Positions 6,996 to 58,246 of a DNA stretch of 64,000 nt are shown here, one piece after another. The position numbers and the translations under genes are program-made. The notes under the pieces were generated by a model. It was not told the DNA's origin. It did no database searches and saw only the letters and a program-made list of their open reading frames with translations. This DNA comes from Tannerellaceae bacterium (lineage in GTDB: Bacteria > Bacteroidota > Bacteroidia > Bacteroidales > Tannerellaceae), in contig JAIRPK010000056.1 in NCBI GenBank assembly GCA_031257015.1, positions 14,116 through 78,115 of the forward strand, in the 5' to 3' direction. Every line of letters begins with the position of its first letter. Positions within the stretch are counted from its first letter, which is position 1.

Positions 6996-7121
6996 GAGTT
7001 TGATTCTCGGAGTGTCTCGTTTGATTCTCGGAGAATCAACGGTGATTCTCGGAGTGTCACGTTTGATGTTCGGAAGGTCATGCGAGATACTCCGGGGGGC
7101 ACGCTTGGGGGGTGGGACGTT
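6996..7121. repeat. 21-bp tandem repeat, 3 near-identical plus about 3 decayed units
   Basis: TGATTCTCGGAG at 7001, 7022 and 7043, with decayed copies in register at 7064, 7085 and 7106. Confidence 0.85.
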
Positions 7122-19565: not shown

Positions 19566-19965
19566 TGCAAATTGTTCTTGTTCAAAACAGGAAGCTTTTG
19601 CATCATTACAAATCGCTCCTGTTCAAAACATGAGGCGTTTGCATCGTTGCAAATCGTTCATGTTCAAAACAGGAGGCGTTTGCATCGTTGCAAATCGCTC
19701 TTGTTCAAAACATGGAGCGTTTGCATCGTTGCAAATCGCTCTTGTTCAAAACAGGAGGCGTTTGCATAGTTGCAAATCGTTCATGTTCAAAACATGGAGC
19801 TTTTGCATCGTTGCAAATCGTTCATGTTCAAAACATGGAGCTTTTGCATCGTTGCAAATTGTCCATGTTCAAAACAGGAAGCTTTTGCATCGTTGCAAAT
19901 TGTTCCTGTTCAAAACAGGAGGCGTTTGCATAGTTGCAAATTGCTCCTGTTCAAAACAGGGGCTT
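19566..19965. repeat. 41-bp palindromic tandem array, 10 units (last partial)
   Basis: Units start at 19566, 19607 ... 19935. Consensus TGCAAATCGYTCHTGTTCAAAACAKGRRGCKTTTGCATCGT; no unique spacers. Confidence 0.95.
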
Positions 19966-34515: not shown

Positions 34516-34830
34516 CCTGAAGTTTCCGCGGAAAAATCCAAAATTTCCATGGGAATGTCTGAAATTTCCACGAAAAAATTCAAAATTCCCGCGGAGATTC
34601 CCAAAATCCCCATGGAAAAATCGGAGATTTCCACGGAGATTCCTGAAATTCCCGTGGAAAAATCCAAAATCTCCGCGGGGACGACTGAAATTTCCGCGGG
34701 GAAATTCAAAATTCCCACGGAAATGGTTGAATATGATGCGGGGATAGTTGAAATATTTGTGAGGATGGTTAAAATTACCACTGAGATTGCCGAAATATTT
34801 ATGTGGATGGGCAAAATATTCAAGAGCAAG
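34516..34830. repeat. Degenerate 21-bp tandem array (10 conserved plus about 5 decayed units)
   Basis: Units such as CCTGAAGTTTCCGCGGAAAAA, TCCAAAATTTCCATGGGAATG and ACTGAAATTTCCGCGGGGAAA in strict 21-bp register from 34516. Confidence 0.88.
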
Positions 34831-40961: not shown

Positions 40962-42596
40962 TTATTTTTTAAGCTCAACATCGACTGTATCCCACGGAAG
41001 GATTTGAACGGTGGCCGTTGCATGAGTGTCGCCAGAACCGGAAGGCGTAGATTGAATCCTGTCCAAATCCTCAAGACACGGTGCGCCTATATATCCAAAG
41101 CTCGTAATAGTCCCGCGGTATTGCTTGTTGCGAAGGAGACCTCCGTCAGCGTTGCCGGATATGTCGAAGCGGTAATAGCATATGTAATTTTCGTATTTAT
41201 AAATCTTATGGCGTTTAGGTTCATAGCTTGACGTATATCCATCGGAGCTGCCGTCGTTCTCAAGGAAATAAACCACGCTCTTGGCCAAGTCCTCTGTTTG
41301 GTAGAATTTGAAGAAATCAAGGTAAGTACGATTCAACATAATACTGTCTCTTTTCAGAATGTCCGGAAGATTACGTATCCTGCCTGAGCCAGGAACATTT
41401 TCAACGTCATAATTAGAATTAAAATCAATATAATATGCCTCTGGAAAAAGAGTGGAGCTATAAGTGACAGCATTGACTATATGTGCAGTATTATCGAATG
41501 AGACAGACGTAACTTGCGCACCTGGCAATTGAGGCTTGAATCTGGCCTTGACAACAATATAAGTGCTATTCCCAACTTCGTCTAAAACATTCTCAGGAAC
41601 ATAATAATAATCAGAGGGCGTCGCTGACGATAAACTCTTTAAAGGAATATTTATCTCGGAGCTGTCGCCGTTCGACCACCAGAACGGTTTGTATGTCGCT
41701 ATTTCAGAGAGATCCAAGCCAGCAAGCGCATCGTGAAATGGAACCAGCGGTTTACTGTTTGCATCCGTATTTTTAAATAACGCCACAGCCCTGTTCTGGT
41801 TCCTGACGCCCCAATACAAATCGTCCAGGGTGCCACAATATTTTACAACAGACGAAGTCCATTTACTGCTAAAAGTTCCGCCTGAGTATCCTGTTATTGT
41901 CACCTTCGCAACCGTCCTTTGCAAATCAATAGAGAAATGATTCTTCGTCGAATCGGAGCCGGACTGCGATTCTTCTGAAGATATGTTCGGACGGACAATG
42001 CGAAGACTCGAACTATCCGACTGTGAATTACTGAAGACCATGTAAGGCGTAGTCATGTCGGAATAGTCCAGCGAGGAGAGCGGCGCAGGAGAGGAAGATA
42101 AGGCAGGACGGCCGAAGTCTATCTCGTGAAGAAAGAGTTTTCCGGCGCTGCTCGCGGTCTTGCTGGCGACCAGCTTGTCAAGCGTGAGGCCTTTCTGGTT
42201 GCCGAAGCGCCATGATTTGTTGTGTTCGTTGGCGAGGACAAAGATCCTTTTGGTTCCGGAAGTTAGCGGAACGGTAGCGGTTTGGTTGCCGGTGGTGAGA
42301 ACCGTGGTATCGACCTCGCATGTCCCGTTGTTGGCGCTGGTGTGAGAGTAAATCATCAGGCGCACACTCTTGATGGAATCCTTCTCGGCGGCGTCGCTTG
42401 TTAGCGGGGCCTTGGTTGAGCCTGTGACGGCGAAGTTGAAGGTGGCGTAAGTTACGTCCCTGGGGCTTTCAGTCTCATTTTCGGATAAACCGGCGGGGAC
42501 TTCCTTTACTGCGCACCCGGACAAGATTGCGGCGACGGTGGCCGCGAACAAAATAGTTGAATAGCTTTTCATTTTCTTATTATTAAAAAAGTTCAT
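40962..42596 (-). CDS. Type V pilus Mfa1/FimA-like pilin, paralog 5 (lipoprotein)
   Basis: Lipobox LSGC, STKAPL, RLMIY and KRIFVLAN N-domain, LQRTVAKV, YYRFDI..LRNKQY.G.I, Pro-containing tail and ILPWDTVDVELKK. Confidence 0.85.
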   Translation of the reverse strand: MNFFNNKKMKSYSTILFAATVAAILSGCAVKEVPAGLSENETESPRDVTYATFNFAVTGSTKAPLTSDAAEKDSIKSVRLMIYSHTSANNGTCEVDTTVLTTGNQTATVPLTSGTKRIFVLANEHNKSWRFGNQKGLTLDKLVASKTASSAGKLFLHEIDFGRPALSSSPAPLSSLDYSDMTTPYMVFSNSQSDSSSLRIVRPNISSEESQSGSDSTKNHFSIDLQRTVAKVTITGYSGGTFSSKWTSSVVKYCGTLDDLYWGVRNQNRAVALFKNTDANSKPLVPFHDALAGLDLSEIATYKPFWWSNGDSSEINIPLKSLSSATPSDYYYVPENVLDEVGNSTYIVVKARFKPQLPGAQVTSVSFDNTAHIVNAVTYSSTLFPEAYYIDFNSNYDVENVPGSGRIRNLPDILKRDSIMLNRTYLDFFKFYQTEDLAKSVVYFLENDGSSDGYTSSYEPKRHKIYKYENYICYYRFDISGNADGGLLRNKQYRGTITSFGYIGAPCLEDLDRIQSTPSGSGDTHATATVQILPWDTVDVELKK

Positions 42597-42653
42597 ATTG
42601 GATATTTATTCTTATTGTAACTGTTCGTTAAGCCTTGCGGTGTTCTGTTACAT

Positions 42654-44270
42654 TCATCGGGCGTAACGGTTGATTCGCGGAGAGTGTCGCATGATTCTCG
42701 AAGAATCGGCTGATGTGCCGGCGTTCTCTTCCACAGTTTCCCAAGGCAGGATTCGGAGGCTGACGACAGCTTTGGGAGCTACTTTGGGAGCGGCGTAAAT
42801 ATTATCAAGGTCGGTAAGCCGGGGCGCTCCCAAATCGGTAAATTCCGTAATGGTTCCACGGTATTGCCGGTTGCGAATTATGCCGCCCTCGGCATTGTCG
42901 GACATGTCGAAGCGGTAGTAGCATACTCCGTTTTCGTATGTATCTATTTTCAGTATCTCCGGCTCATAGTTTGACAAATAGCCGGCATCGCTGTTTTTAT
43001 GCTCAAGGATATAGCTCACGCGCTTTGCATCATATATATTGCTGAAAAGGGAGCCGGGGGAAGATGACGGGGCGTTAAAGATTGTTTCGTCGATGAGCCT
43101 CCTGTCGAGAGCAGCTTTATAGGCCTCCGGGTTAAGGCGATGGAAAGTCATCGGCACGCGGTATGACATTAGCGTCACATCCAGCTTGCCTATTGCAACG
43201 TCAAACGTCGCGCTGCGGATAACCGTCATGTCTGCCGGAGTAAATTCCGCCTTGACGGCAATGTAAGTGCTGTTTCTCTCCTCGTCATAAACATTCTCCG
43301 GCACATAGTAATACTCCGGCAGCGAATCCACATCGGCCACCGGGATGTTTATCTCCCTACCCGTGAGATCATTCTTCCACCAGAAGACTTTGTAGAGGTC
43401 TGTCCACTCAGGATTATAACCCTCTGTGATGTTGTAAAACGGGGGCTGGAGCTTGCCGTTCACGTCCGTACTTCTGAACAGAGCCACTGCACGGCTTTGA
43501 TTCCTTACTCCCCAGTATATTTCACCGAACGTTCCGGCGATGCTTTCTGCGGAAGCGATTTCAGAACCGGAGGAATTGAACATGGTTACTTTCGCAAGCG
43601 TTCTTTGCAGCTCAATTGTAAAGCGGTTCGTCGTCGAATCTGCCTGTTCGTCCTGCGATGCTTCTGCGGATATGTCCGGATGCAAATTCCTCAAGCTCGA
43701 CGAATCTGACTGAGCATTGCTGAACACCATATAAGGCAAGGCCATGTCTGTATAATCCAGCGACACGAGGGGGAGCAGGTACAGCGACGCTCCGAAATCC
43801 GGCGTCCCGAAATCTATTTCGTGCAGGAACAATTTCCCGCCGCCGGCCATGGTTCGGGAGTCCAGCAGTTGAAGCAGGCTTTGACCTTTCTGGTTCGCGA
43901 AGCGCCAGGTCTTGTCATGCTCATTGGCGACGACGAATATGCGCTTGGCGCCGACGGTTACGAGAACGGTGGCTGACGCTGAATCGGAGGCCATAATGGT
44001 GGTGTCAACCTCGCAAAGGCCGAGATTGCCTGCCTTATGGGCGTATATCATTAATCGAAAGCTTTTAATTGAATCTTTTTCGCCGGCGTTGCCGACCAAG
44101 GCGGCTTTGGTGGCTCCTTCAACGGCGAAATCGAATGTTGCGAAGGTTAATGCCGGAGCAGGCTCGACTGTTTCTTCTTCCCATATAACCGGAACTTCCC
44201 TGACGGCGCAGCCCGACAAAATTACAGCTGCAATTGCAGCCGCGAACAGGGGTGTTAGATGGATATTCAT
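42654..44270 (-). CDS. Type V pilus Mfa1/FimA-like pilin, paralog 4, altered and extended C-terminus
   Basis: LSGC, ATKAAL, KRIFVVAN, LQRTLAKV, YYRFDM..IRNRQY; ends ILPWETVEENAGTSADSSRIMRHSPRINRYAR. Confidence 0.85.
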   Translation of the reverse strand: MNIHLTPLFAAAIAAVILSGCAVREVPVIWEEETVEPAPALTFATFDFAVEGATKAALVGNAGEKDSIKSFRLMIYAHKAGNLGLCEVDTTIMASDSASATVLVTVGAKRIFVVANEHDKTWRFANQKGQSLLQLLDSRTMAGGGKLFLHEIDFGTPDFGASLYLLPLVSLDYTDMALPYMVFSNAQSDSSSLRNLHPDISAEASQDEQADSTTNRFTIELQRTLAKVTMFNSSGSEIASAESIAGTFGEIYWGVRNQSRAVALFRSTDVNGKLQPPFYNITEGYNPEWTDLYKVFWWKNDLTGREINIPVADVDSLPEYYYVPENVYDEERNSTYIAVKAEFTPADMTVIRSATFDVAIGKLDVTLMSYRVPMTFHRLNPEAYKAALDRRLIDETIFNAPSSSPGSLFSNIYDAKRVSYILEHKNSDAGYLSNYEPEILKIDTYENGVCYYRFDMSDNAEGGIIRNRQYRGTITEFTDLGAPRLTDLDNIYAAPKVAPKAVVSLRILPWETVEENAGTSADSSRIMRHSPRINRYAR

Positions 44271-44379
44271 TGATTCATTTGAATTTAATCTTTTTATTCT
44301 TCAAAAACAATCGGGCTTTTACGGCTCGACCTTTAATTGCGAATTGTCAGCGATAAGAGAGGCTCGACGGACAACGGCA

Positions 44380-44387
44380 CAAATGTA
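44380..44387 (-). promoter_or_regulatory. -7 promoter box for pilin unit 2
   Basis: Minus strand TACATTTG followed by TGCCGTTG; same context as the box at 50353-50360. Confidence 0.7.
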
Positions 44388-44626
44388 GGGATAAAAACGG
44401 GCGCATCATACTGTTCTTATCTTTTCCCTGAAGCCTCTATTGCATAAACAGGCCATGTTTAACAATGCTTTCCTGCGCCATGATACTGCTGAAACCGACT
44501 GTTAACCAGAGTTATTCCGGGCGGGGGCGATTAGTTTCGCGCATGTTTTTTTTCTTGTTCCAGAACAGGTATAATTCATTTTGCTTGAAGCTATGAGTTC
44601 CATTTTTAAGCTTTCATGTATGCCAT

Positions 44627-45098
44627 GACATCTTCCGAAGATGTCTTGACATGTGGCGAACGTCTCTAAACATGTAATGAACGTCTTTAAAGACGTGACG
44701 AACGTCTCTAGACATGTAAAGAACGTCTTTAAAGACGTAACGAACGTCTCTAGACCTGTAATGAACGTCTTTAATGACGTGATGAACGTCTCTAGACATG
44801 TAATGAACGTCTTTAAAGACGTGACGAACGTCTCTAGACATGTAATGAACGTCTTTAAAGACGTGGCGAACGTCTCTAGACATGTAATGAACGTCTTTAA
44901 AGACGTAACGAACGTCTCTAGACATGTAATGAACGTCTTTAAAGACGTAATGAACGTCTCTAAAGACGTGGCGAACGTCTCTAGACATGTAATGAACGTC
45001 TTTAAAGCCGTAACGAACGTCTCTAGACATGTGGCGAACGTCTTTAAAGACGTGACGAACGTCTCTAGACATGTAATGAACGTCTTTAAAAAAGTTCG
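44627..45098. repeat. 21-bp tandem array, 21 units, mostly alternating A/B (42-bp higher order), palindromic
   Basis: GAACGTC every 21 bp from 44658 to 45078. A = GAACGTCTCTAGACATGTAAT, B = GAACGTCTTTAAAGACGTGAC. Confidence 0.97.
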
Positions 45099-45196
45099 AT
45101 GCTTCCTTAAAACAGAAAATAGATGCTCCGGTCTTTTGTTTTGGCCATCTGATGAGGCGCAAGGCAAAGGCTGCGTCTTAATCCTCTCCGCCGCAT

Positions 45197-45233
45197 AAAA
45201 AAACAGAGACGCGCCGTTCGTTGCGCGTCTCTA
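45197..45233 (-). terminator. Intrinsic terminator of pilin unit 1
   Basis: Minus strand AGAGACGCGC-N8-GCGCGTCTCT followed by GTTTTTTT. Confidence 0.85.
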
Positions 45234-45339
45234 TCCCTTGAGTCTAAACGTTGGGAGTAAGGGGCTGCCGGTTGTGCGGCTCGCCCTTTATCCCATGATT
45301 CTTTACCGTAGCATCTACATACGGTCTTTGTGCTTCCGA

Positions 45340-46929
45340 TTATTTCTTCAGCTCGACATCAACTATCACCCACGGCAATATCTCTACGGTAGCCGTGGCA
45401 TGGGTGCCGGCCGGCCCGCCTTCAGGCGTGGTTTTGAAATCGTCGAGGAGGGAAAGCCTGGGCAGACCGATGCCGCGAAAATTGGTTATCCGTCCACGGT
45501 ATTGCTTGTTACGCAACAGGCCGCCGTCTTTGTTGTCCGCTATGTCGAAGCGGTAATAGCATGTGCCGCCTTCATACGTTTCTATCTTTAGTCTGATTGG
45601 CTTATAATCGGCCTGATAACCGACAGCGGTGCCTTGTTCGAGGAAATAAATTAAGCGCCTGGCAATATCCTTGGTGGGGAATGTGGCTTTTTTATGAAGT
45701 TGTCCATTGAATGCGCTCTCGTCAATCGTCAAATTGGCGGCTTCCTCAGTTTCTGGTGGATAATCATAATTGACGCTGTAATATGTCACACCCTTGTCAA
45801 TATTCTTATAGCTGGTGCCGGTTATCTTATGCGAAGCCTCATCAACGGTAAAACCTGTAACTACAACATTTGGTTTGAAATTGGCCTTAACCACAATGTA
45901 GGTGCTATTCCCTGCCTTATCATAAAGATTCTCCGGAACATAATAATTCGACGAAACAGAGTTTCCGAGAGGTATGTTTATTTCCGCTCCGGATTCATCG
46001 CCTGCCCACCAGTACGGATTGTAGATCGACCAGTCCGTATCGTCCAAACCATCCAGTACGTTGAGGAACGGTGGCTGCACCTTGCCGCTCCCGTCAACAA
46101 GCTTGAATATGGAAATAGCCCGGCTCTGGTTCCTTACGCCCCAGTAGGTGTCTGACAACGCTCCATCTTCGTGGCGCTGACCGGTTCCAGTACTATAACT
46201 TGTAGTATAAATACCCACTTTAGCGACTGTCCGTTGCAGAACCATCCTGAAATGATTGGAGCGTTCCGTTGCGGTATCGGCTTGCGACTGTGCGAGAGTG
46301 ATGTCCGGCAGGATTTCAAACAGGTTAGGCCATTCCGCTGTTGCACTGGTTGGTAAAGCAGCCTGTGCATTGCTGAAAATCATATCGGGCGTTGCGATGC
46401 TGGAGTAGTCCAGGGATGTTAGAGGCTCGGCCGTCCCGGCGCTCAGGGCTGGTTCTCCGAAATTAATATCGTGCAGGGCGAGTTTTCCTCCGCTGGCGGC
46501 TGTCCGTTCTTCCAGCAACTTGGAGAGGGCATTGCCTTTCTGGTTGGGAATACGCCAGCTCTTGCTGTAATCGTTTGCGATTACAAGAATGTATTTCCAC
46601 CCGGATTCGAGAGAGAGGGCGGCGGATTCGCTATCGTTGGTCATGATGGTGGTATCAATCTCGCATGAGCCGGTTGAGTTGCTCAGGCGTTTGTATATCA
46701 TCAATCGTATGCTCTTGATGGAATCTTTCTCGGCGGCATCACCGGCTAACGGGGCCTTGGTGACTCCATCGACGGAAAATGAGAACGTGGCGTAGCTTGG
46801 AACGCCGGCTGACGGGGTTTCTTCTTCTTCAAAAGCGACAGGCGCTTCCTTGACTGCACAGCTTGACAGCATTGTGGCGGCGATAGTGGCAGCGAAAACA
46901 GATAATAGATGTTTAGTCATTCTTTTCAT
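45340..46929 (-). CDS. Type V pilus Mfa1/FimA-like pilin, paralog 3
   Basis: LSSC, VTKAPL, LQRTVAKV, YWGVRNQSRA, YYRFDI..LLRNKQY and ILPWVIVDVELKK. Confidence 0.85.
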   Translation of the reverse strand: MKRMTKHLLSVFAATIAATMLSSCAVKEAPVAFEEEETPSAGVPSYATFSFSVDGVTKAPLAGDAAEKDSIKSIRLMIYKRLSNSTGSCEIDTTIMTNDSESAALSLESGWKYILVIANDYSKSWRIPNQKGNALSKLLEERTAASGGKLALHDINFGEPALSAGTAEPLTSLDYSSIATPDMIFSNAQAALPTSATAEWPNLFEILPDITLAQSQADTATERSNHFRMVLQRTVAKVGIYTTSYSTGTGQRHEDGALSDTYWGVRNQSRAISIFKLVDGSGKVQPPFLNVLDGLDDTDWSIYNPYWWAGDESGAEINIPLGNSVSSNYYVPENLYDKAGNSTYIVVKANFKPNVVVTGFTVDEASHKITGTSYKNIDKGVTYYSVNYDYPPETEEAANLTIDESAFNGQLHKKATFPTKDIARRLIYFLEQGTAVGYQADYKPIRLKIETYEGGTCYYRFDIADNKDGGLLRNKQYRGRITNFRGIGLPRLSLLDDFKTTPEGGPAGTHATATVEILPWVIVDVELKK

Positions 46930-46961
46930 TGTGTGAAATAGTTTTTATTATTAATATTAAA

Positions 46962-48518
46962 TTACTTTAGGTCAACAGTAACTGTCTCCCACGGCAATAT
47001 CAGTATGGTTGCGCTTGCATGTGTCGAGCTTTGAGCAACCGTCGGGATTTCGTCAAGTTCGTCAGGCCTGGAGAATCCCAGTTTAGTGAACTCCGTTATC
47101 CTTCCAAGATATTGTTTGTTGCGCAGCAAGCCTCCGTCGGTATTGTCGGAGATGTTGAAGCGATAGTAGCAGACGCCGTTAGTATAGGTATCAATTTTTA
47201 GTTTCTCAGGAGTATAGCCGGCTGTCCACAATGCAGGGCTACCGGAATGTTCAAGCATGCAGGCAATCAGTGTTGCATCGTCCTGTTTGGCAAAAACCAG
47301 TCCTTCGATGTCGGAATATGAGCCGAGAGAGGAGTAATTCACGCCGGATGAGGCTAACGATGCAGGATTAATGCGGTAGAATGTTGCGGGGGCAGTTGTC
47401 GTGCCTTTCTCAATCGAGGTAATACTCTGGACAACTCCGTCTTCCTCGTCGTAAGCAATCGACTTGACCAGATTATTGGCTGCCGGGATGAATGAAGCCT
47501 TTGCTGCAATGTAGGTGCTGTTACCCATGGTTCCGAACACATTCTCCGGGACATAATAGTATCTCTCCTCATCGCCTTCGGCGTTCACCGTAAGGTTTAT
47601 CTCCACGCCCGTCTGGTCGCCCGTCCACCAGTATGGCTTATAGATCGTAACATTAGTGAGGTCGAGGCCTGCCAGGACGTTGTAGAGAGGTGAGCGAACC
47701 TTTCCGTCTGCTCCTGTTTCCTTAAACAGAGCTACTGCCCGGTTCTGGTTCCTTACGCCCCAGAATAGATTGCTCAGACCTCCACTCAGAGATTCTGCAT
47801 TAATGTTCATCGAGGCGGCTACATTATTGACGGTAACTTTCGCAACAACTCTCTGCACTGGGATTGTGAAATGATTCTTCGACGCATCGGCTGTTTCGCT
47901 CTGGGATTCCTCCAGCGAGATGTCCGGCAGAACCGTAAAGATGCTCGACGACGTTGCCTGCGAATTGCAAAAGACCATTTTGGGTGTCACAATGCTGGAA
48001 TAGTTTAACGCTGTAAGTGCTGCGGGCGGCGTCCCTGCCAGTAGAGGCGTTCCGAAATCAATCTCATGCAGGAAGAGTTTGTTTCCGCTTGTCTCCGTCT
48101 TTGTCCCAATCAAATCCGTTAACGCTCGTCCTACTTGTCCTGATAGAAATGAGTTCACGCCTGGTTCGTTAGCAATCACGAAGATGCGCTTTGCTCCTGG
48201 GCTGACTTTTAGCGATGACGTCCTTGTGGAAGTAGTCGTAAGATTTGTATCAATCTCACAGATGCCGGAATTATCCCCTGCGTGAGCGTAAATCAGCAAG
48301 CGGATTTTTGCAATATCGCTCGTCTCGTTCTCGTCACTCGTAAGAGGAGCCTTGGTTTCTCCCTCAATGTTGACGTCAAGCGTCATATAGGTGGCATCAC
48401 TTGTCGGTTCAGGAGTTTCTTCCTCAATAGAAACGGGAGTTTCCTTAACCGAACAACTCGATAGAAAAGCAGCAGCTACGGCTGCAAACAAAAAAGAAAG
48501 CAGATTTTTTTTCATCAT
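46962..48518 (-). CDS. Type V pilus Mfa1/FimA-like pilin, paralog 2
   Basis: LSSC, ETKAPL, KRIFVIAN, VQRVVAKV, YYRFNI..LLRNKQY and ILPWETVTVDLK. Confidence 0.85.
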   Translation of the reverse strand: MMKKNLLSFLFAAVAAAFLSSCSVKETPVSIEEETPEPTSDATYMTLDVNIEGETKAPLTSDENETSDIAKIRLLIYAHAGDNSGICEIDTNLTTTSTRTSSLKVSPGAKRIFVIANEPGVNSFLSGQVGRALTDLIGTKTETSGNKLFLHEIDFGTPLLAGTPPAALTALNYSSIVTPKMVFCNSQATSSSIFTVLPDISLEESQSETADASKNHFTIPVQRVVAKVTVNNVAASMNINAESLSGGLSNLFWGVRNQNRAVALFKETGADGKVRSPLYNVLAGLDLTNVTIYKPYWWTGDQTGVEINLTVNAEGDEERYYYVPENVFGTMGNSTYIAAKASFIPAANNLVKSIAYDEEDGVVQSITSIEKGTTTAPATFYRINPASLASSGVNYSSLGSYSDIEGLVFAKQDDATLIACMLEHSGSPALWTAGYTPEKLKIDTYTNGVCYYRFNISDNTDGGLLRNKQYLGRITEFTKLGFSRPDELDEIPTVAQSSTHASATILILPWETVTVDLK

Positions 48519-48699
48519 TTGAATTTAATAGATATGTTTATGTATAGCGCGGACTTGTTATAAATGTTCTCTTAAGCCTTGAGATGCCAGGCACCACATT
48601 GCGGAACTTCAACGTCATGCGTCTCTCCACAAGAAATAGCCATTCTGCCTCAAAAGTCTAATCGAAAAAGAACAATCTTTAGGAGTCCGTTAGTATTTG

Positions 48700-50238
48700 T
48701 CATTTTAAGTCCAGTACCAGCGTATCCCAGGACATAATCTGCACCCCGGACGCTCCCTGTCTCCCACCGATAGACATCGGCTTAATCTCGTCAAGCAGTT
48801 CTATCCGTGCAGCTCCCACTCCTCCAAAGGAGGTAATCTTCCCTCGATACTGTTTATTGCGCAGCAGCCCTCCGTCGGCATTGTTCGATATGTCAAAGCG
48901 ATAGTATGAAATGCCGTTCTCGTGCGTTTCAATCTTCAGCCTCACCGGTTCATAGCCTGCAGGATAAGACGAAATGTCGCCGTCATGCTCAAGGAAATAG
49001 GCAACGCGCCTTGCTTCCTCGATATTCGTAAACGGCTGCCCGACGGCAATCAAATTATTGAGCCGGAAAAGATCAATCGTTATAGCGGATGCTTCCTCCG
49101 TTTCTGGCGAAGCATTATAATTAATGGTATAGTAAGTCTGATGTGCAGGAAGCCTTAGCGTCTCAACGTCCGAAACTGTCCCCTTGTCTTCGTTAAAAAA
49201 AACTCTGTCAATGCAGTATGCCGGTTTGAAATTCGCCTTGACCACAATATAGGTACTGTTCCCCGTGCTGCCATAAACATTCTCCGGGACATAATAATAA
49301 TTCGCCACTGATGCTCCCAGATCCATTGGGATGTTCACATCCTCGCCTGCCACATCGCCCGTCCACCAGTACGGTTTATAGTCCGAAATATCTGAAGGCC
49401 ACGACAAGTCGAAGAACGGCGGACTCACCCTGCCTCCTTCGACAGTCTTGCGGAATAGCGCTACTGCCCTGTTCTGATTCCTTACACCCCAGTAGAGGTC
49501 ATCATAATCTCCGCTGATATAATCGTTCTCCGTATAATTCAAGTTCGCAGCACAGAAAACCGTCACCTTCGCCACAGCCCTTTGCATACTAATCCTGAAA
49601 TGATTCTTCAACGAATCCCCCGGACTGTTCAGCGTTTCCTCCTGCGACACATTCGGAAGCACTGTGCGAATGCTCGCCGAATCCGCTTGCGAATTACTAA
49701 AGACCATATAAGGTTTAACAAGGTCAGAATAGTCCACCGACGTAAGCGGCTCAATAAGCTCTGAGCTGCTAAGAGCTGGCGTTCCGAAATCAATCTCATG
49801 CAAGAACAAATGACCACCCCTTGCGGGATTTTTGTCAATAATCATCTCCCTCAGGCTATGCCCCTTCTGGTTCGGGATGCGCCAGGACTTGTCGTGCTCG
49901 TTGGCAATAACGAAAATGCGCTTCTCTCCTGGACTGACCGGGATAGCCACAGAAGCGGTCATATATGTGGTGTCCACTTCGCAAACACCATCATTCCCGG
50001 TTGTATGCTCATATATCATCATGCGTGTGCTAAGGAGCGATTCAGACTCGTCAGCGTCGCTCGTCATCGAAGTCTTGGAAGTTCCTGCAACGGAGAAGCT
50101 GAACGTAGCGTAGGTAACATCCTTCGCAGACACATCTCCTTCTCCCGCCCATCCAACGAGAGTTTCCTTCACCGTACAACTTGACAAAACCGCAACTGCA
50201 ACGGTAGCCTTAAGCAAATAGGTTAGATAGAATTTCAT
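48700..50238 (-). CDS. Type V pilus Mfa1/FimA-like pilin, paralog 1
   Basis: LSSC, TSKTSM, KRIFVIAN, MQRAVAKV, YYRFDI..LLRNKQY and IMSWDTLVLDLK. Confidence 0.85.
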   Translation of the reverse strand: MKFYLTYLLKATVAVAVLSSCTVKETLVGWAGEGDVSAKDVTYATFSFSVAGTSKTSMTSDADESESLLSTRMMIYEHTTGNDGVCEVDTTYMTASVAIPVSPGEKRIFVIANEHDKSWRIPNQKGHSLREMIIDKNPARGGHLFLHEIDFGTPALSSSELIEPLTSVDYSDLVKPYMVFSNSQADSASIRTVLPNVSQEETLNSPGDSLKNHFRISMQRAVAKVTVFCAANLNYTENDYISGDYDDLYWGVRNQNRAVALFRKTVEGGRVSPPFFDLSWPSDISDYKPYWWTGDVAGEDVNIPMDLGASVANYYYVPENVYGSTGNSTYIVVKANFKPAYCIDRVFFNEDKGTVSDVETLRLPAHQTYYTINYNASPETEEASAITIDLFRLNNLIAVGQPFTNIEEARRVAYFLEHDGDISSYPAGYEPVRLKIETHENGISYYRFDISNNADGGLLRNKQYRGKITSFGGVGAARIELLDEIKPMSIGGRQGASGVQIMSWDTLVLDLK

Positions 50239-50352: not shown

Positions 50353-50360
50353 CAAAATTA
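50353..50360 (-). promoter_or_regulatory. -7 promoter box for pilin unit 1
   Basis: Minus strand TAATTTTG followed by CGCCGTTG, about 115 nt upstream of the start codon. Confidence 0.7.
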
Positions 50361-57943: not shown

Positions 57944-58246
57944 TCCGGAATCCCGAAAGTATTTTTCCTTGCGTCGGGAAGAATTTCCGGAATCCCGAAA
58001 GTATTTTTCCTGACGTCGGGAAGCTTTTCTGAATCCCGAAAGTATTTTTCCTGATGTCGGGAAGCTTTTCTGAACCCCGAAAGTATTTTTCCTGACGTCG
58101 GAAAGCTTTTCTGAACCCCGAAAGTATTTTTCCTGACGTCGGGAAGCTTTTCTGAATCCCGAAAGCTTTTTTCCTGACGTCGGGAAGCTTTTCTGAACCC
58201 CGAAAGCTTCCCGACGCCGGTAAAAATACTTTCGGGGTTTCGGAAA
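57944..58246. repeat. 41-bp tandem array (6 units plus a partial one) ending in an inverted unit
   Basis: CCCGAAAG at 57952, 57994, 58035, 58076, 58117, 58158 and 58199. Unit CTGAAYCCCGAAAGTATTTTTCCTGACGTCGGGAAGCTTTT; 58201-58246 is a reverse-complement unit. Confidence 0.95.

Follow-up and report, generated by a model that had tools for sequence, protein, structure and literature searches.

The 21-unit tandem array located between two pilin transcription units of a Tannerellaceae bacterium is, with a probability of roughly 0.6, a non-coding and species-specific minisatellite that is dispersed among intergenic spacers without a MITE scaffold, and that can be regarded as bacterial satellite DNA. 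Taken by itself, the pilin locus is ordinary, being neither a pilin switch nor the source of a new protein. The genome around it is one in which nearly all tandem loci, amounting to 3.6% of the sequence, are satellite-like, with a unit of 21-23 bp or a double of this length, and the pilin array belongs among the dispersed Bacteroidales intergenic minisatellites, here in a form that lacks a MITE frame.

The window, by which we mean the whole 64,000-nucleotide stretch of DNA that was analysed, corresponds to positions 14116-78115 of contig C55 in a 3.12-Mb assembly of 73 contigs. This assembly is a MAG with 93% completeness, and by its TypA sequence the organism belongs to Tannerellaceae, close to Parabacteroides and to termite-gut MAGs. 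Positions 40962-50238 of the window carry five tandem, diverged genes for FimA/Mfa-like type V pilins (512-544 aa), all on the minus strand; a further close pilin paralogue is present elsewhere in the genome (C28:3965-5521). The array and the elements that surround it are as follows.

42654-44270, minus strand: downstream FimA/Mfa-like type V pilin gene, 538 aa, with the lipoprotein signal LSGC and a Fimbrillin_C match of 27.5 bits
44387-44380, minus strand: candidate Bacteroidetes-type -7 promoter box TACATTTG, a pattern match only
44616-44657, no strand: decayed edge units, among them a 19-bp flank palindrome and a degenerate A-type unit
44658-45098, no strand: the tandem array itself, 21 units strictly phased at 21 bp, with a 42-bp higher-order repeat
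45197-45232, minus strand: intrinsic terminator of the 529-aa pilin unit, a GC-rich hairpin followed by a U-tract
45340-46929, minus strand: upstream FimA/Mfa-like pilin gene, 529 aa, which closes the upstream unit

The terminator hairpin, at about 45205-45232, has a predicted folding energy of -26.3 kcal/mol (z -4.09), and none of 200 shuffled sequences folds as well. The candidate TACATTTG box, a motif that shows no overall enrichment in the window, resides about 110 bp upstream of the start of the 538-aa pilin gene. Another -7 box at 50353-50360 (minus strand) probably serves the first pilin unit. Because the array begins about 100 bp past the terminator and ends about 230 bp ahead of the candidate promoter, it occupies the space between two transcription units, which is the location that the original prediction had assigned to it.

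Tandem Repeats Finder (TRF) reports the pilin-spacer array as a single call at 44653-45085, with a period of 42, 10.3 copies, 90% matches and a score of 544. Specifically, the hexamer ACGTCT occurs 21 times across 44660-45080, and all 20 intervals between successive copies are exactly 21 bp. Two unit types alternate along the array, A (GAACGTCTCTAGACATGTAAT) and B (GAACGTCTTTAAAGACGTGAC); the motifs TCTAGA and ACATGT are found in the A units, and seven B units contain the perfect 16-bp palindrome ACGTCTTTAAAGACGT. The one break in the alternation spans units 13 and 14 (44932-44973), a B unit and then a B-like hybrid. These results agree with the original prediction, which had described a 21-unit A/B array with a 42-bp higher-order repeat, a BB slip near 44931-44972, the palindrome in B and the two short motifs in A. 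The same prediction called the array near-perfect; the repeat is real, but this wording is generous, given that related arrays elsewhere in the genome are more homogeneous.

All 21 units are direct copies in one register, and none is inverted. The units abut each other, and only a 3-nt linker differs between them, in a handful of transition variants. A CRISPR array was rejected on these grounds, since there are no unique spacers between the repeats. The count of 21 units derives from one metagenome assembly, and the public k=31 Logan contigs of four samples break within the array.

The two edges of the array differ in character. On the right, the array stops abruptly inside a B core, with the last unit cut after TTTAAA. 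On the left, the flank palindrome GACATCTT-CCG-AAGATGTC at 44627-44645 is predicted to form a hairpin of -15.2 kcal/mol. The same CCG-centred palindrome borders a related array (C25:84162) as well as an array of the CTCCGAG family, linking the families through old edge units. Furthermore, the array flanks retain an excess of identity at lags of 21 and 42, which marks them as decayed units. The array was proposed to be a young, expanding element. Compared with the rest of its family it is in fact rather diverged (C41:33973 is the closest relative) and its edge units have decayed, so that youth is not supported; expansion is, in the sense that the sequence in this spacer between two pilin units is a tandem repeat of the expanding and contracting kind.

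Other loci that carry the repeat were indeed found. The family to which the pilin-spacer array belongs comprises 18 arrays with 304 units in this genome, such that the array has 17 sisters, and a search of the same genome revealed no solo units. Likeness to the sister arrays is confined to 44616-45098. Only one of the 18 arrays has a flank with any similarity to that of another; the family has neither leader nor tail, and its arrays end at no consistent unit phase. Several sub-families have a 42-bp higher-order repeat in common across loci, and some arrays at separate loci are as alike as units inside one array, which points to recent copying between spacers. One sister array lies just outside the window, some 3 kb past its right end (C55:81297-81651, 8.5 copies of 42 bp, 95% matches). 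It occupies a divergent spacer bordered by the genes for asparagine synthase and for a 403-aa lipoprotein without a Pfam match, and its units are nearly identical to those of the array at C49:27635.

Three open reading frames (ORFs) span the array, as had been noted in the original prediction.

44502-45167, minus strand: 221-aa ORF with LKTFITC/LETFVTS heptads, reading LKTFITCLETFVTS; a by-product of the stop-free 42-nt unit, not a gene
44614-45162, minus strand: 182-aa ORF, reading FKDVHYMSRDVRH; judged non-coding
44653-45198, plus strand: 181-aa ORF with NVFKDVT/NVSRHVM repeats; judged non-coding

The presence of three long ORFs with heptad-like periodicity could be taken to mean that one of them encodes a heptad or coiled-coil protein, and the plus-strand frame is open in 13 of the 18 family arrays. 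We regard a coding repeat as scarcely credible, however. The chance that a given frame of a 42-nt unit contains no stop codon is (61/64)^14 = 0.51, so three open frames of six is the number expected by chance; the original prediction had itself noted that open frames are partly expected from low complexity. The 221-aa frame and the 182-aa frame are each open in four of the 18 family arrays and closed in the other 14. The openness of the plus-strand frame is explained by its codons, since only two of 14 (AAA and AGA) are one step from a stop, both of these would require an A>T transversion, and the observed unit variation consists mostly of transitions.

Other measures lead to the same view. 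The positional entropy of the variable positions shows no 3-base periodicity and no third-position excess (0.76 versus 0.63 bits), and Pfam searches with the ORFs returned only sub-threshold coiled-coil or low-complexity noise. Moreover, many sister families have periods of 22, 23, 41 or 43 bp, which are not multiples of three, and no reading frame could be held through them. The three ORFs are by-products of the repeat and the array is non-coding. The suggestion of a de novo coiled-coil peptide is not supported, in view of the mostly closed 221-aa frame, the missing codon periodicity and the sister periods that are indivisible by three. Annotation pipelines should leave the three ORFs uncalled.

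A second proposal made for this locus was that the array tunes the downstream pilin unit through its copy number or through cruciform extrusion. Its distance of about 230 bp upstream of the candidate promoter would suit such a role, as would the B unit, which is a perfect AT-centred palindrome, and the strong predicted folding of single strands (z about -5, equal on both strands). We nevertheless consider a locus-specific tuner unlikely. The genes downstream of the 18 family arrays include those for GlyRS, PheS, PRPP synthetase, asparagine synthase, a CysK-like enzyme, a short-chain dehydrogenase (SDR) and a PhoU-like protein. These are unrelated housekeeping genes that form no regulon, and nothing about them points to a pilin-specific role. 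Arrays of all families occur in 20-35% of long spacers, convergent ones without a promoter included, and the roughly 370 arrays in the genome are found whatever the orientation of the neighbouring genes. No promoter motif was found in the repeat unit, and arms of 8 bp are short for stable cruciform formation.

The dyad symmetry on which a cruciform would depend is also not maintained in the family. The palindrome is perfect in only 45 of the 304 units. Furthermore, the one-sided variant ACATCTTTAAAGACGT is present in 40 units, and the compensated form ACATCTTTAAAGATGT in three, a ratio of about 13:1. This excess of one-sided changes indicates that the dyad is inherited and not actively maintained, and selection for it is not supported. 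The original prediction drew attention to paired changes that keep the dyad; these are genuine in the flank unit, but they are not the rule across the family.

The folding data could alternatively be read at the level of RNA, with the array transcribed as a string of hairpins that stabilize or terminate a transcript, or that give rise by processing to small RNAs about 21 nt long. Either strand folds strongly, and the unit length resembles the sizes of small RNAs. Such an element seems improbable to us, because folding is equal on the two strands and the orientation of arrays relative to genes is unconstrained. In addition, the pilin-spacer array follows a strong terminator and precedes the next promoter, its hairpins lack a U-tract, and the best match to an Rfam covariance model scored 28.5 bits against a threshold of 100.

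The dispersal of the family in 18 copies raises the question of whether a transposase moved it, either as a BrickBuilt-type MITE or by REP/RAYT-like mobilization of the palindromic unit. There is a precedent for the former in Porphyromonas gingivalis (PMC4596501), and two other families in the present genome have conserved, non-repetitive flanks. For the pilin-array family we judge this origin very improbable. Similarity stops at the array itself, and no IS5-like terminal inverted repeat (of the GAGACCTTTGCA type, with at most two mismatches) exists within 4 kb of it. The inconsistent phase of the array ends and the lack of solo units in the genome likewise count against mobilization. The Y1/RAYT transposase domain PF01797 is absent from all three array-rich genomes (the present genome G000, a MAG that is 93% complete, and its congeners G001 and G012), whereas the array-poor G004 and G009 do have it, and REP/RAYT mobilization was rejected accordingly.

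The two families with conserved flanks are fam0 (32 of 47 arrays) and fam12 (8 of 8 arrays), and the shared flanks extend 230-350 bp with 77-97% identity. Representatives of fam0 are located at C36:26914, C7:13055, C12:11141, C56:7901 and C18:10145, among other sites. From this comparison, both families look like composite elements of the BrickBuilt type, unlike the family of the pilin array. Among the protein-coding genes of the MAG, no proliferating transposase family is visible. The only multi-copy mobile-element protein family is a group II intron-like reverse transcriptase with about three copies, some of them fragmentary (for example C19:14910-15842 and C72:50286-50621).

Intergenic tandem repeats of similar dimensions have been described in P. 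gingivalis, where repeats of 23 nt (BrickBuilt), 41 nt (PgRS) and 22 nt are reported to be species-specific and found beside housekeeping genes (PMC4596501). By our comparison, the known elements closest to the pilin array appear to be BrickBuilt (23 nt) and PgRS (41 nt) of this species. Like the arrays reported here, BrickBuilt belongs to the Bacteroidales and consists of imperfect, head-to-tail units of 21-23 nt without spacers, which mix conserved and variable positions; its copies, about 19 in number, are dispersed, always intergenic, species-specific and often adjacent to housekeeping genes such as those for tRNA synthetases (Klein et al. 2015, PMC4596501). The family described here similarly has 21-bp intergenic units without spacers in 18 dispersed arrays. 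Two differences are evident. BrickBuilt is one family that makes up 0.44% of the P. gingivalis genome (PMC4596501), as compared with about 20 families and roughly 370 arrays in a genome with 3.6% of its length in tandem loci. Also, the MITE scaffold of BrickBuilt is missing from the pilin-array family, which has neither conserved flanks nor terminal inverted repeats.

A comparison with PgRS gives a similar result. MITE464/PgRS consists of 41-nt tandem direct repeats (cited in PMC4596501), and it shares with the pilin array a tandem period of 41-42 bp within dispersed intergenic elements; the window also contains 41-bp arrays. PgRS repeats reside inside a MITE with terminal inverted repeats, whereas the 42 bp of the pilin array represent two diverged 21-bp units with no MITE frame. 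Within the window, four more arrays of like design occur at 6998-7074 (21 bp, 3.7 copies), 19566-19960 (41 bp, 9.6 copies), 34516-34725 (21/42 bp, 5-10 copies) and 57948-58206 (41 bp, 6.3 copies), and their unit sequences are unrelated to one another and to those of the pilin-spacer array.

The scale of the phenomenon is apparent when TRF is applied to the entire assembly. This search recovered 402 tandem loci covering 112 kb, of which 373 show a minimal period of 21-23, 41-43, 63 or 83-84 bp. Periods of 10-11 or 31-32 bp are essentially absent, which indicates that the quantum is about 21-23 bp and its doubles, and not any whole number of helical turns. Several contigs start with tandem arrays (C12:1, C17:1, C32:1, C63:1, C51:212 and C67:353); arrays evidently break the assembly, and the figure of about 370 is for this reason a lower bound.

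The arrays are creatures of the spacers. In 322 of the 373 arrays, overlap with gene proxies (ORFs of at least 100 aa, which are not a curated annotation) is below 10%. Typically an array is in the middle of its spacer, with the upstream stop a median 181 bp away and the next start a median 211 bp away. Density differs little with gene arrangement, at 0.61 per kb of spacer between tandem, 0.68 between divergent and 0.48 between convergent gene pairs. An array is present in 20-35% of all spacers of at least 100 bp, and most families show no constraint on how their arrays are oriented towards the genes.

The arrays fall into about 20 sequence families. For most pairs of families, the resemblance does not exceed that between shuffled units; distant relationships are modestly in excess, and a TC-C-GA dyad centre links a few families. 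Given these random-level distances, common descent of all families was rejected as the cause of the shared period. Universal dyad symmetry is not supported either, because family dyad scores range from 3 to 8 of 8 around a null mean of 4.7; the pilin-array family is the strongest, and several families have no dyad. In several families, core positions are more conserved than linkers or loops.

We favour the interpretation that these arrays, including the one at the pilin locus, are satellite DNA that would expand and spread without a transposase. As with tandem repeats in general, the number of units would change through slipped-strand mispairing and unequal recombination. The same processes may homogenize the interior of an array and leave decayed units at its edges. 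Variants would probably move from spacer to spacer when related arrays that already existed undergo ectopic recombination or gene conversion, and not by a transposase. Arrays might persist where harm is smallest, in the stretch that separates a terminator from the promoter after it. If the downstream pilin unit is affected, whether by extra spacing or by local DNA structure, this would on our interpretation be incidental and not evolved control. Loss of repair genes was rejected as a cause of expansion, since MutS and SbcD are present in all genomes.

Other bacterial repeats offer only partial parallels. REP/BIME-2 elements and REPIN-RAYT systems of Proteobacteria are, like the repeats described here, short palindromic intergenic units that number in the hundreds per genome, are species-specific, are located between transcription units, and sometimes occur in clusters with two types alternating. 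In contrast to REP units, which alternate in orientation, the pilin-array units are all direct and phased; no RAYT (Y1) gene is present in the genome, and several sister families are non-palindromic. The MIRU/VNTR loci of Mycobacterium tuberculosis and the BOX elements (boxB) of Streptococcus pneumoniae are dispersed intergenic minisatellites with a variable unit number. MIRUs are located inside operons and overlap stop and start codons, and BOX elements end in boxA and boxC. Unlike the arrays described here, these elements have units of 45-100 bp and follow no 21-23 bp rule.

Geometry of a related kind is known from plasmids, where iterons have a spacing of about 22 bp and the sopC centromere of the F plasmid consists of 12 repeats of 43 bp, each with a 16-bp palindrome. 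These systems share with the pilin array direct repeats at two or four helical turns, each carrying a palindrome of the size that a dimer would bind. No rep or parA/parB genes occur near the pilin-spacer array, where the neighbours are pilin genes, and searches of plasmid and phage records found no similarity to the family. Both a plasmid or phage origin and a role as plasmid iterons or a partition centromere were rejected on these grounds, together with the 18 chromosomal copies beside housekeeping genes.

Searches of other genomes confine the pilin-array family to this species. It was not found in 40 relatives, sampled at 60-200 kb each and including 21 species of the same genus, nor among 185,579 species representatives. 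JGI metagenomes gave no match for the flank or the family pattern. The pilin-array locus itself is found in termite-gut and other gut metagenome runs, and four samples contain array-specific variants at single-copy depth.

Although array sequences are private to a species, arrays of the same unit lengths occur in congeners and in P. gingivalis. Two MAGs of the same genus, G001 and G012, are as array-rich as the present genome (13.7 and 9.0 loci per 100 kb, respectively). Their arrays have periods of 21, 23 and 42 bp, and unit sequences wholly different from those reported here. In the large genomes G004 and G009, also of this genus, short arrays number about three per 100 kb, and most have period 22. 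Arrays are scarce in other Bacteroidales families, and periods of 21-23 and 42-43 bp recur among the few that these contain. The congeners are too diverged for array positions to be compared, as synteny is lost.

A narrow rule of unit length that holds across unrelated sequences and species is not what a purely neutral model predicts, and it hints at a protein or a structural 'ruler'. Likewise, the contrast between conserved core and linker within families could reflect the constraint of a binding site. It also speaks against the neutral view that, in the pilin-array family, none of the 18 arrays is in a convergent spacer (p ~0.07). Extending this idea, we can tentatively imagine a lineage-wide Bacteroidales ruler of about 21-23 bp, either an abundant DNA-binding protein or a repeat-generating mechanism, that sets the unit length whatever the sequence. 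In host-restricted lineages such as termite-gut Tannerellaceae, phased arrays in a quarter to a third of all spacers would then serve as protein-bound insulators, the pilin array being one. We hold this scheme to be doubtful, though far from negligible.

The main rival to the satellite interpretation is that units are bound by a dimeric DNA-binding or nucleoid-associated protein, which we rate as a possibility of the same limited order. A spacing of 21-23 bp, or two helical turns, would put the sites on one face of the DNA, and the resulting nucleoprotein block would insulate transcription units or organize the chromosome. Strict 21-bp phasing, a 16-bp palindromic core with a variable 5-bp linker (and the similar division of core from linker or loop in several other families), like unit lengths in unrelated sequences and species, the placement of arrays between terminator and promoter, and the likeness to iteron spacing and the 43-bp sopC repeats are all consistent with such architecture. 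However, about 20 unrelated unit sequences would need either many specific proteins or one that reads DNA shape. Several families lack any dyad, and within the pilin-array family perfect palindromes are the minority and one-sided changes dominate. Helical phasing alone is also insufficient, in that periods of one or three turns are absent.

HU-HIG proteins were considered as readers of the arrays and rejected. Strong copies number four in G000, none in G001 and two in G012, versus 26 and 18 in array-poor G004 and G009. Nor are they adjacent to arrays, as only one of the four HU-HIG genes in G000 has an array upstream, in a genome of which 55% is within 2.5 kb of an array.

In practical terms, arrays of this kind interrupt assemblies built from short reads and give rise to spurious ORFs in MAGs. 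In the literature, descriptions of them are limited to a few elements of P. gingivalis. Should the length rule reflect a protein or a mechanism, it would represent a new aspect of Bacteroidales chromosome biology. Within the genus, array abundance runs opposite to genome size, with genomes of 2.7-3.1 Mb being array-rich and those of 4.4-5.4 Mb array-poor, and it runs opposite also to the copy number of HU-HIG and Y1-transposase genes.
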